This document shows, piece after piece, positions 48,767 through 51,744 of a DNA stretch of 64,000 bases. Origin of the DNA: Methanobacteriota archaeon (GTDB taxonomy: Archaea; Thermoplasmatota; Thermoplasmata; SG8-5; JAGLSY01); assembly GCA_020696385.1 (NCBI GenBank), contig JAEHCQ010000003.1, positions 1 through 64,000 of the forward strand, in the 5' to 3' direction. Each line of letters opens with the position of its first letter. Positions within the stretch are counted from its first letter, which is position 1. The notes beneath the pieces were generated by a model. The model saw nothing but the letters and a program-made list of their open reading frames with translations, did no database searches and had not been told where the DNA came from. Made by a program: the position numbers and the translations under genes.

Positions 48767-51744
48767 TGTGACTAATGACTGTTAGTGACGGACGGACTGA
48801 ATATCTCGGACGAATCCTCGATACTTACATCCCCGCTCTATCAAACTTATCTTCTATAAGTGTCAATGTTGCCTCGTTTCAGGGTAAACTTCGAGCTTAG
48901 ATGCTTTCAGCTCTTATCCCTTATGGCGTGGCTGCCCAGCAATGCCTTGTCAGACAACTGGTAAACTAGAGGCCACGAAGCCCCGTTCCTCTCGTACTAA
49001 AGGCTCCTTCCCTTCAGGCAACAAAACACTTCCACCAAAAAGCAAAATACCTGTCTCACGACGGTATAAACCCAGCTCACGATCCCTTTTAATGGGCGAA
49101 CAACCCCACCCTTGGCAGCTGCTGCACCGCCAGGATAGGAAGAACCGACATCGAAGTAGCAAGCCGCCGGGTCGATAGATTCACTATCTGCCCTGCTCTT
49201 GAAGACGTAGATCTTCAAGTTGTGTGGCAAAGAGTAATGAACTCTTGCCGGCGACAACTCAATTATCCCCGGGGTAACTTTTCTGTTATCAACACCTCCC
49301 ATAAATGAAATGTGTTGGTTCGCTAGGCCCTGCTTTCGCATCGTGATTTGTTGTGGTGCCAAATCACGTCAAGCCGGCTTTTGCCCTTGCACTCAACGGC
49401 AGATTTCTGACCTGCCTGAGCCGACCATTGGGCGCCCTTGTTATTTTTTCGAGGGCGTGGCGCCCCACCCAAACTGCCCATCTATCGGTGTCCTTCACGC
49501 AGAAGTAAGTAATACATTGCTACAAGGGCAGTGTTCCATATTTGACTCCACTTGAACTGGCGTCCAAGTTTCGACGTCTCCTGCCTACTCTCTACAAATA
49601 ATAACGTATTACAACGACAGACTGCAGTAAAGCTCCACGGGGTCTTCGCTTTCAGGTGGAAGGTACTGGACTGTGCGCCAGTATGTCAGTTTCACCGGCT
49701 TCCAGGCGGGGACAGTAGAGCTCTCGTTGGGCCTTCATGCAAGCCGCCAATTAAGCGGCAAGGTATTACGCTACCTTAAGAGGGTCATAGTTACCCCCGC
49801 CGTTTAACGGTCCTTCTTCCGGTTGGAACCGGGTTTGAGATACCGTCACTGGGCAGGTTTCAGCGGCAATACAAATCCTTTCGGACTAGCTACCACCTAC
49901 GTTTTTATTAAACAGTCGGAGCTCCCTAGTCACTGCGACCAGACACTCACGTGGCTGGCACCCCTTCTCCCGAAGTTACGGGGCTATTTTGCCGAATTCC
50001 CTCGCCTGGATTACGCCGACACGCCTTAGGCTTCTCACCTAGGGGCACCTGTGTCGGTTCTGGGTACGAACACAAATGCTGTAAACATATCTCTTTTCAC
50101 GGACACCGGGGATAAATTATAGCCGGGCTTCGCCGGCCTCATAACGCTTTCGCCGAGTTCTCATCATTACGATACTTCCTCAGCATATACGCTTAAGCAC
50201 TCAGACAAGAATGCATAATCTACCCAGATGTGTCAAAATATGAACAAAGGCATTTGAAGTGCTGGAATATTAACCAGCTTCCCTTTCGGTATTTTCGATT
50301 AAGAAATACCTTAGGATCGACTAACCCTCGACTGACGAACATTGTCGAGGAACCCTTGCCCCTGCGGCGGTGCGGATTCTCACCACACTTTGCTGCTACT
50401 CCTACCAGGATCCTTATTATAACGCGGTCCACTGGACCTCACGGCCCAACTTCTACCCACGCAATACACCTCTCTACCAAATTACACTACTGTATTCTGA
50501 AGTATCGGTATTCGATTTTAGCCCCGTCCATTTTCAGGGCCCATGATCTCGACTGGTGAGCTGTTACGCTGTCTTTAAAGGATGGCTGCTTCTAAGCCCA
50601 CCTCCCAGTTGTCTTTGACCATGGACGCCTTTCAAGTTACACTTAATCGAAATTTAGGGACCTTAACTTCAGGCTGGGTTCTTACCCTTTTGGACATTGA
50701 GCTTACCCCTAATGCCCTCACTCCCAGAGTCTACGACGATAACAAATTCGGAGTTTGGCAAGATGCCGAGGAATTTCTTCCCCTAAACACCCAATCAGTA
50801 TCTCTACATCATTATCCGTCTCGTCTGAGATCTACCTGCGAGTAGTCTCGAGAGGAACCAGCTATTTCCGGTCTAGATTGGCCTTTCACCCCTATGCACA
50901 GGTTATCCGAGCGATTTGCACATCAGCACCGGTTCGGGCCTCCACCTTCCTTTCGAAAGGCTTCACCCTACCCAAGCATAGATCGACCGGCTTCGGGTAT
51001 CACACCATTGACTCCAGGCGAGCACACCTCGTCCCTCACCCCTTACGGGGATGCGGACTGTTGGTTTCCCTCCGGCTACGCAATTAAATTGCTTAACCTC
51101 GCCAATGATCAGAACTCCCTGGCCCGTTATTCTAAACGGACGATATAACGCTGCTCCACAGTCTTCGCTGCTTCTTCGCTTAAACGCTATATCAGCCTAT
51201 AGTTGTTTGGTTTCAGGCTCTTTTAACCTACCGTCAGGTGTACTTTTCAGCTTTCACTCACGCTACTACTTCACTATCGGTCTCGGGTCGTATTTAGAGT
51301 TGGAAGTTTATGCCTCCCATATTCATGCGCGATATCCAACGCACACTACTCAAGATCCCTTCTTATCCCACGAACTTACCATTACGGGGCTTTCACCCTT
51401 TATTGCACTCCATTCCAGAAGATTTCATGTTCGTTCGTTAGGGAAACAGAAGGTCTATAACACCACATCTCCCACCATTCATCACAGTGGGATTCAGTTT
51501 GCTCTTTACCGTTTTCGATCGCCTCTACTCACGGCATCTCTATTGATTTCTTTTCCTGCGGGTACTAAGATGCTTCAATCCCCCGCGTTCCTCGCCATTA
51601 CTGGCTGCACAAAAGTGCAGGAAGTCCCATTCGGCAATCTCCGGATCAAAGGTTCCTTGCGCCTCCCCGGAGCATTTCGCAACTTGGCACGACCTTCATC
51701 AGCGCCCGAGCCGAGCCATTCCCCAAACAACGTAGCTAGCCACA
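48767..51744 (-). rRNA. 23S ribosomal RNA (stand-alone, intron-containing)
   Basis: Sarcin-ricin loop AGTACGAGAGGAAC, PTC motifs, helix-1 pairing TGTGGCTA/TAGTCACA; ends approximate. Confidence 0.98.
49177..49236 (-). other. 60-nt bulge-helix-bulge intron in 23S helix 89
   Basis: Removal restores GAGUUCAU|AUCGAC; BHB GUUC/GAAU with bulges AUU and CUA. Confidence 0.9.

Follow-up and report, generated by a model that had tools for sequence, protein, structure and literature searches.

The window, which is the whole 64,000-nt stretch of DNA that was analysed, carries a 23S (LSU) rRNA gene on its minus strand (Table 1). The host, an uncultured archaeon from sediment, is represented by a Thermoplasmata/Methanomassiliicoccales-like MAG in which this is the only complete 23S rRNA gene assembled. 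The gene has no adjacent 16S gene; an SSU rRNA match was found nowhere in the MAG, so there was no 16S gene to check for introns. Within the 23S gene, the cmscan alignment placed 62 nt between the conserved halves of the helix 89 loop, where the RF02540 consensus has 2. The same segment was delimited by BLAST comparison with intron-less relatives, whose alignment to the gene was interrupted at gene positions 2513/2573 (window 49177-49236). This comparison returned no further large inserts, and the gene contained no other introns, being collinear with those of the relatives G005 and G033 apart from the 60 nt. Alignment to rrlH of Escherichia coli K-12 set the junction at U2477|A2478, with A2476|U2477 equally possible because of a repeated U at the site, and indicated that the loop is conserved from E. 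coli to archaea. The loop adjoins the peptidyl-transferase centre. Removal of 49177-49236 yielded the loop consensus of RF02540 and of the intron-less relatives, together with a match to E. coli positions 2470-2483. An earlier sequence-only reading of this DNA had placed a 60-nt insert at exactly these positions in the helix 89 loop, had given the site as about 2477/2478, and had proposed that cutting after the second base of each bulge brings the conserved loop back; all of this agreed with the alignments.

Table 1 Features of the 23S rRNA gene and its insert, listed in the direction of transcription (window coordinates).
Feature	Position	Strand	Basis or remark
Pre-23S processing stem, 5' strand	51750..51781	(-)	Cofold of gene flanks
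23S (LSU) rRNA gene, host of the insert	48762..51749	(-)	RF02540, 2784.4 bits, model 1-2987 (Infernal)
Helix 89 stem, 5' strand	49248..49255	(-)	Partner is 49163-49170
5' exon part of BHB	49237..49244	(-)	Outer helix of 2 bp (GA), central 5' strand GUUC, bulge bases AU
5' splice site	after 49237	(-)	
Probable 60-nt ORF-less BHB intron, loop of helix 89	49177..49236	(-)	Gene positions 2514-2573; cmscan alignment, BLAST break, RNA contigs
Inner helix, 5' strand	49226..49235	(-)	Structure evaluation
Apical 8-bp hairpin of the insert	49198..49219	(-)	Absent from the relatives' shorter introns
Inner helix, 3' strand, and central helix, 3' strand (GAAU)	49179..49192	(-)	
3' splice site	between 49177 and 49176	(-)	RNA-contig joint ends AG..TA on the plus strand
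3' bulge (CUA) and outer helix, 3' strand (UC)	49174..49178	(-)	
Helix 89 stem (8 bp), 3' strand	49163..49170	(-)	All 8 pairs hold, with compensatory changes in 2
Pre-23S processing stem BHB, 3' strand	48713..48744	(-)	Cofold of gene flanks

The insert boundaries form a canonical 3-4-3 bulge-helix-bulge (BHB) when the structure is written out and evaluated, with two 3-nt bulges flanking a 4-bp helix. The reverse-strand sequence is exactly the string that had been noted earlier, with a central helix GUUC/GAAU and the bulges AUU and CUA. Inside the motif lie an inner helix of 10 positions, one of them a C.U mismatch, and an apical hairpin of 8 bp; outside it, the outer helix has just 2 Watson-Crick pairs, beyond which comes a non-canonical stretch of helix 89. 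When the 106-nt region was folded in isolation, the structure of minimum energy (-42.6 kcal/mol) was not the BHB, for which -36.5 kcal/mol was calculated, or -37.7 kcal/mol when the BHB core alone was imposed. In the minimum-energy fold the 5' arm of the intron (49226..49235) is base-paired to the helix 89 exon strand immediately upstream of it, and a non-BHB minimum-energy fold was also obtained for two of the six other distinct introns. As a BHB detector, minimum-energy folding thus failed for three copies, those of the window and of two relatives, and for the remaining ones it mostly left out the 4-bp helix; reliance was therefore placed on covariation.

Inserts at this site were present in eight 23S contigs of the same order, with lengths of 60, 44, 43, 41, 41, 41, 40 and 38 nt, and absent from five others, 13 contigs being resolved in all. 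Their interiors are divergent and barely alignable, and the BHB pairs covary. Among the seven distinct sequences, 98.4% of 126 pair cells hold standard pairs, a fraction that fell to 28.6-46.0% when partners were slid by 1-3 columns, and the covariation score was reached by none of 500 shuffles. Five pairs show changes on both sides, including three of the four inner-helix pairs; in the central helix, G.U changes to G-C and U-A to U.G, and the pairs of the 5' exon part (49237..49244) are all invariant or compensated. The canonical BHB proposed in the sequence-only reading is accordingly found both in the 3-4-3 layout of the reverse strand and in pairs kept across seven distinct homologues.

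The distribution of the insert is patchy. On an exon tree of 24 rows the intron label needs six changes, at least five of which are forced by well-supported branches, and a well-supported branch unites each of three intron-bearing rows (the window, G021:C97 and G006) with an intron-less sister. The intron is present or absent even within one genus, and one bin contains both an intron-bearing and an intron-less 23S contig. Given this pattern, the intron behaves like an element that is dispensable and has been lost or gained repeatedly. The 23S contigs of two relatives stop near the site, that of G007 at the junction and that of G002 20 nt beyond, a hint of population heterogeneity. In total, homologous inserts at the same site were found in seven other genomes and two metagenome contigs, the latter carrying a 41-nt type intron. 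A global pattern scan covering inserts of 34-64 nt at the site returned seven loci, all in relatives already known. A class sample of 401 genomes was searched with BLAST, giving 274 genomes with a match; among the 150 rows listed, extra length at the site occurred only in the seven known genomes, and longer or split cases may exist among the other 143 rows. As far as searched, these inserts of 38-60 nt appear to constitute a small family confined to one order.

Other identities for the insert were considered and rejected. In the window only the LSU covariance model passed, which left no group I or group II intron, and a search for a small RNA at a permissive Rfam threshold gave two sub-threshold chance matches on the opposite strand. 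When the 60 nt were compared with the entire MAG by blastn-short, only the insert itself and chance words of 12-13 nt were recovered, arguing against a copy of the genome's small structured repeats; the insert is unique in the genome. A mobile intron with a homing endonuclease was likewise rejected. The 60 nt encode none, as the sequence-only reading had said in calling the insert hairpin-only, and leave no room for such a gene; longer or endonuclease-bearing alleles were absent from the 13 resolved contigs of the order, from the global 34-64-nt scan and from the 150 listed class rows.

Evidence at the RNA level came from three metatranscriptomes of three studies, in which three, two and one contigs, respectively, joined position 49176 to 49237 and skipped exactly 60 nt (shorter side of the junction 50, 26 and 55 nt). 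The bin 49203-49233 had a depth of 0 in all three RNA runs with its flanks covered, and near-identical RNA contigs covered the variable flanks at depths of about 60-300. In an independent DNA run no 60-nt-skipping joint was present and one 899-nt contig, differing from the window by 18 mismatches and one gap, spans the insert at a depth of 34.1, so that the insert has support from independent DNA. The sequence-only reading had named persistence of the 60 nt in the mature rRNA as an observation that would speak against an intron; what was found, in contigs not tied to the intron-bearing genotype, was zero depth and 60-nt skips in three runs. The runs contain just 0.37-0.50 of the sampled words, and the RNA evidence consists of assembled contigs, in which precursors, circles and rare unspliced forms would not appear. 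A 66-nt segment of the intron-less G005 is identical to the spliced window sequence. Because intron-less relatives have the same exon flanks, the skipping RNA contigs could derive from organisms that never had the intron; that they are not assignable with certainty to the intron-bearing organism is the main caveat on splicing.

The same contigs bear on whether the exons are joined at all. EndA or another nuclease might excise the insert and leave the 23S rRNA in two pieces, like a bacterial intervening sequence. A BHB by itself guarantees cleavage only, and fragmented and permuted archaeal 23S rRNAs are described in the available part of one report (PMC7758197). This outcome is nevertheless very unlikely, as the RNA contigs from three studies span the junction, their shorter arms being 26-55 nt long, RtcB is encoded in the MAG, and helix 89 would be left without its closing loop.

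It is also highly improbable that mature 23S rRNA keeps the 60 nt, as an extension of the helix 89 tip specific to the lineage. Such an expansion segment would place the insert in a loop that is conserved between E. coli and archaea, and it is difficult to reconcile with lengths of 38-60 nt, variable sequence and absence within one genus. As a stem-loop the insert is stable (z-score -5.58) and prolongs helix 89, and its minimum-energy fold needs no BHB; covariation, however, maintains in particular the 4-bp helix with its 3-nt bulges and not a continuous stem. The zero insert depth in three RNA runs, despite well-covered variable flanks, argues against retention as well, subject to the caveat that the RNA contigs are not tied to an intron-bearing cell.

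An assembly or binning artefact, whether a chimeric join that created the insert or a contig that does not belong to the genome, can practically be dismissed: the bin does contain foreign rRNA fragments, as seen in two short contigs (C9 and C4) with insert-free 23S pieces just 71-83% identical, but the 23S gene is embedded in a contig at least 64 kb long, homologous inserts occupy the same site in the other genomes and metagenome contigs, and the independent DNA run has its own insert-spanning contig.

Direct observations, namely the anatomy of the insert, its covariation and patchy distribution, the enzymes encoded and the insert-free RNA contigs, argue that the 60 nt are very probably an archaeal BHB intron, spliced and gene-less, in a Thermoplasmata-class 23S rRNA gene. 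The MAG encodes, on another contig (contig 11), a fused EndA of 358 aa with two PF02778+PF01974 repeats, which matches TIGR00324 with 196.2 bits against a cut-off of 59.6. RtcB (604.1 bits) is encoded on a contig other than that of the 23S gene, and introns are predicted in 11 of the 30 listed tRNA genes. The strict alpha-2-type EndA of Euryarchaeota requires a canonical BHB, according to the available parts of two sources (PMC4090602, PMC7714728). The canonical BHB of the intron fits the requirement of the strict-type enzyme. By cofolding, the pre-23S processing stem was found to have a second canonical 3-4-3 BHB with the same layout as the intron. The processing-stem BHB is an internal comparison substrate for the same enzyme.

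From these observations we infer which enzymes cut and join, the formation of a circle and the mode of spread. In the precursor, the exon-intron boundaries would pair as an hBHBh' motif atop the helix 89 stem, the 4-bp helix, with a 3-nt bulge at either end, standing between a 2-bp outer helix on the stem and a 10-position inner helix. The fused two-repeat EndA would cut after the second base of each bulge, and RtcB would ligate the exons and so restore the universally conserved helix 89 loop. The intron would probably be closed into a 60-nt circle.

The BHB intron type itself is well known, and the host group and the position at the helix 89 tip are the notable part. Both had been suspected in the sequence-only reading. 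The lineage is indeed unusual, the intron-bearing relatives being labelled Thermoplasmata, Methanomassiliicoccales or Methanobacteriota archaeon, and in the literature searched neither a BHB rRNA intron of Thermoplasmata nor the helix 89 loop site 2477/2478 as an intron site was found, consistent with a possibly unreported site. Kjems and Garrett reportedly described, in 1991, two short 23S introns in Staphylothermus marinus. BHB introns of 23S rRNA that bear homing endonucleases are known from Desulfurococcus mobilis (I-DmoI) and Pyrobaculum (I-PorI). These share with the helix 89 intron the splicing signal, the host gene and a functionally central, conserved rRNA location, and differ from it in that an insert of 60 nt cannot hold an ORF. 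In the portions available of the published accounts, rRNA BHB introns are mostly those of Thermoproteales and Desulfurococcales, including short 16S introns in Thermoproteales (Jay and Inskeep 2015, PMC4496867), and are also seen alongside group I introns in archaeal rRNA genes from metagenomes (PMC4496867, PMC6125680). The helix 89 intron resembles the crenarchaeal ORF-less rRNA mini-introns, as far as these are described there, in being small, gene-less and hairpin-like, in lying in a conserved rRNA region with BHB boundaries, in being a presumed substrate of the tRNA splicing endonuclease, and in its patchy occurrence among relatives. It differs from them in its Thermoplasmata-class host and in a fused two-repeat strict-type EndA as opposed to the lenient alpha2-beta2 enzyme; crenarchaeal lineages with rRNA BHB introns have the lenient endonuclease type, according to a review. 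Like the processing-stem and tRNA-intron BHBs of Haloferax volcanii, in the available part of the account (PMC7714728), the motif is a strict hBHBh' substrate for the same enzyme type. Unlike such euryarchaeal BHBs, which release whole rRNAs or tRNA introns, it lies inside mature 23S sequence. Archaeal LSU group I introns, in the part available of Nawrocki et al. 2018 (PMC6125680), are ribozymes that occupy sites 1923, 1931, 2500 and 2593 and are about 300-1100 nt long; they too lie in the peptidyl-transferase domain of the 23S gene, whereas the helix 89 intron has 60 nt and no above-threshold Rfam match.

A more speculative reading, improbable on present evidence, may be proposed. Gene-less BHB introns could have a hot spot at the helix 89 tip that extends across phyla, and the intron could delay the folding of helix 89 until EndA and RtcB act, splicing then being a late licensing step in the assembly of the 50S subunit tied to the EndA cut in the processing stem. 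Pairing between exon and intron, in which the intron 5' arm is complementary to the helix 89 5' strand, is the predicted minimum-energy fold in three of the seven distinct copies. If the proposal were true, the intron would keep this peptidyl-transferase-side helix in a non-native fold before splicing.

For annotation, the insert interrupts rRNA assemblies, two relatives' contigs ending at the site or no more than 20 nt from it, and it can mislead LSU-based annotation and primers. For the biology of the group, rRNA introns persist in a euryarchaeal-grade lineage with a strict fused EndA where the motif is fully canonical. The seven distinct sequences of 38-60 nt are a compact natural substrate set for recognition by the strict fused enzyme, and the presence and absence of the intron within one genus offers a clean system for the gain and loss of gene-less archaeal introns.

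The 23S rRNA gene of the window is complete and is unlinked to a 16S gene there. The window corresponds to contig 33 of a MAG that totals 2.28 Mb in 50 contigs and is 94.5% complete; a search of the whole MAG gave no SSU rRNA. In the alignment to the RF02540 model, the loop of a domain V hairpin was 62 nt long, against 2 nt in the consensus. The gene was collinear with the 23S genes of intron-less relatives apart from a single break, which falls between positions 2513 and 2573 of the gene, and no second large insert was found in this comparison. The 60 inserted nucleotides are single-copy in the MAG. 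Alignment with rrlH of Escherichia coli K-12 showed that the interrupted loop corresponds to E. coli positions 2470-2483, the tip of helix 89, with the junction between U2477 and A2478; because a U is repeated at the junction, a joint between A2476 and U2477 yields an identical product. The sequence-only reading had put the site at about 2477/2478, which this alignment bears out, and its RNA-sense string was identical letter for letter to the reverse-strand read.

Features of the 23S rRNA gene and its surroundings, in window coordinates
Feature	Coordinates	Strand	Remarks
23S rRNA gene	48762-51749	-	RF02540, 2784.4 bits, model positions 1-2987
Insert	49177-49236	-	60 nt, helix 89 loop
Helix 89 stem, 8 bp	49248-49255 with 49163-49170	-	followed by 3 unpaired positions per strand
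Pre-23S processing stem with BHB	51750-51781 with 48713-48744	-	pairing of 23S gene flanks
878-aa ORF	52026-54662		upstream of 23S gene
2606-aa open reading frame	54809-62629	+	few kb upstream of rRNA gene

The insert boundaries make up a motif of the bulge-helix-bulge (BHB) kind. Inward from the unpaired positions are a 2-bp outer helix and a 4-bp central helix (GUUC/GAAU), together with two 3-nt bulges whose sequences are AUU (5' strand) and CUA (3' strand); beyond the bulges lie an inner helix of 10 positions, one of them a C.U mismatch, and then an 8-bp apical hairpin. The arrangement is that of hBHBh', and its bulges are staggered like those of tRNA introns. The processing stem of the same gene contains a BHB of the same layout, with a 15-bp outer helix, a 4-bp central helix and two 3-nt bulges, past which come 1 bp, a mismatch and 8 bp. 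This stem is about 20 nt or less from the mature 23S ends. When folded in isolation, the 106 nt reached a lowest energy of -42.6 kcal/mol (z-score -5.58; none of 200 shuffles folded as well), compared with -36.5 kcal/mol for the BHB structure and -37.7 kcal/mol with the BHB core alone imposed, and the intron BHB was not chosen by thermodynamic prediction alone. The 5' arm of the intron has two complementary partners: the intron's 3' arm, with which it forms the inner helix of the BHB, and the helix 89 exon strand; in the minimum-energy fold it pairs with the exon strand directly upstream, an alternative that was the predicted best fold in three of the seven distinct intron copies. This pairing may have arisen as a by-product of constraints on the sequence, or it may act as a conformational switch such as Kjems and Garrett reportedly proposed for crenarchaeal rRNA introns; the functional reading seems quite improbable.

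Logan contigs from three metatranscriptomes (X1, X3 and X7), each of a different study, and from a DNA run (X2) were placed on window positions 48800-49700 at 90% likeness; X2 and the RNA runs are not a matched DNA/RNA pair, and contigs cannot reveal precursors or circles. Contigs joining 49176 to 49237 were observed in all three RNA runs, three in X1, two in X3 and one in X7 (shorter sides of 50, 26 and 55 nt, respectively), with a depth of 0 in 49203-49233 in each. Every RNA joint skipped 60 nt, with a 1-nt ambiguity. X2 gave no such contig and a depth of 34.1 over the same interval, and one X2 contig of 899 nt continued through the insert, covering 48891-49700 with 18 mismatches and a single gap. 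Near-identical contigs of the RNA runs covered variable parts of the flanks, with, for instance, 0 differences over 48823-48911 and 2 over 49452-49574. The RNA joints and zero insert depth match the prediction of splicing with ligation, and neither an expansion segment nor an unligated cut would predict them. The bridging contigs could nevertheless stem from intron-less organisms, because intron-less relatives share the exon sequence that surrounds the junction.

The order is represented by 22 genomes in the collection, including that of the window; 15 matched the region, and 13 contigs, belonging to 12 genomes, resolved the helix 89 loop. Eight contigs carried an insert (window, 60 nt; G020, 44 nt; G011, 43 nt; G010, G013 and G015, 41 nt; G006, 40 nt; G021:C97, 38 nt) and five lacked it (G005, G012, G014, G017 and G021:C40), with both states present in genus g5. 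One relative's contig (G007:C22, L015) ends exactly at the junction and another, from the window's own genus (G002:C29, L011), 20 nt past it; assembly may have broken off there because the populations sampled contained both intron-plus and intron-minus variants. In G038:C117 (L017), the segment matching gene positions 1800-2968 was about 250 nt longer than in other relatives, which points to a different insert at another place in domains IV-VI of that genome.

In an alignment of the eight insert-bearing sequences, seven of them distinct, the intron interiors were hardly alignable and the BHB was retained. Standard pairs filled 98.4% of 126 pair cells, against 28.6-46.0% with the 3' partners slid by 1-3 columns. 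Both sides had changed in five pairs, including three of the four inner-helix pairs scored; in the central helix G.U became G-C twice and U-A became U.G once. None of 500 column shuffles reached the covariation score or the percentage paired, although such controls overstate independence because the sequences are few and related; the slid-partner control preserves relatedness, yet fell far below the observed pairing.

An exon tree was built from 1105 exon columns in 24 rows. Omitted were G007, G002 and G032, which were too short, and two 23S fragments of the MAG, on the short contigs C9 (1-601; L002) and C4 (779-1322; L003), which lack the insert, are 71-83% identical to the window gene and are probably mis-binned foreign rRNA pieces. 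The intron label required six changes on this tree, at least five of them forced by well-supported branches, and clustered no better than shuffled labels (167 of 500 shuffles were as low). The window, G021:C97 and G006 each had an intron-less sister on a well-supported branch. The G021 bin holds two different 23S genes: C97 (L005), with the intron, pairs on the tree with a sister genome from the same genus, and the intron-less C40 (L047), the nearest 23S to the window gene and its sister, was probably mis-binned and comes from the window's family. The window and C97 introns have their 5' arm and 3' end in common and differ mainly by an added hairpin in the window.

A scan of 185,579 species, each represented by one genome, sought a 34-64-nt insert between exact exon motifs. 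Seven loci were returned, all known insert-bearing relatives, with the window's own record outside this count; a metagenome collection yielded two contigs, both of the 41-nt type. A class sample of 401 genomes gave 274 with a match (G109 was entered in the tallies only), and about 40 extra bases were observed in just the seven known genomes among the best 150 rows listed, with a further 143 rows outside that list. No endonuclease gene for the intron family was found in these scans, which covered 34-64-nt inserts globally and the listed rows of the class sample. Insert-bearing relatives are labelled Thermoplasmata, Methanomassiliicoccales or Methanobacteriota archaeon, and runs with 0.37-0.50 of the 23S gene's sampled words came from marine, salt-marsh and cold-seep sediments.

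No BHB rRNA intron in Thermoplasmata or Methanomassiliicoccales, or at helix 89, was found in the full-text literature searched, which lay mostly outside subscription papers and wholly outside curated rRNA-intron site tables. Introns are placed by PMC4496867 in the 16S genes of Thermoproteales and Aigarchaeota and in the 23S genes of Desulfurococcales and Thermoproteales, and PMC6125680 lists archaeal group I introns at sites 1923, 1931, 2500 and 2593, with BHB introns co-occurring in the same host genes. The window intron is well supported as a BHB rRNA intron of a familiar sort; its lineage is unusual, and its helix 89 position is not described in the literature searched.

The splicing endonuclease EndA of the MAG is a single protein of 358 aa in which the N-terminal and catalytic domains occur twice in tandem (PF02778 and PF01974 each matched in two stretches; TIGR00324 score 196.2 bits, cut-off 59.6); it is of the fused homodimer type. 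The ligase RtcB is also encoded (604.1 bits). Introns were predicted by aragorn in 11 of the 30 listed tRNA genes of the MAG; two very long ones, of 605 nt in tRNA-Met and 357 nt in tRNA-Thr, may be spurious or harbour inserted elements. The strict alpha-2-type endonucleases of Euryarchaeota depend on a canonical BHB (PMC4090602); according to PMC7714728, the Haloferax enzyme requires one too, and the window intron presents exactly such a motif. Most likely the precursor would be transcribed with the intron and its boundaries would fold into the BHB; going by the enzyme families, the EndA dimer would then cut each bulge after its second base, and RtcB would ligate the exons and probably close the 60-mer into a circle. 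The same pair presumably also handles the BHB in this transcript's processing stem. The intron family looks old within the order, where it has been repeatedly lost, or moved by some other route.
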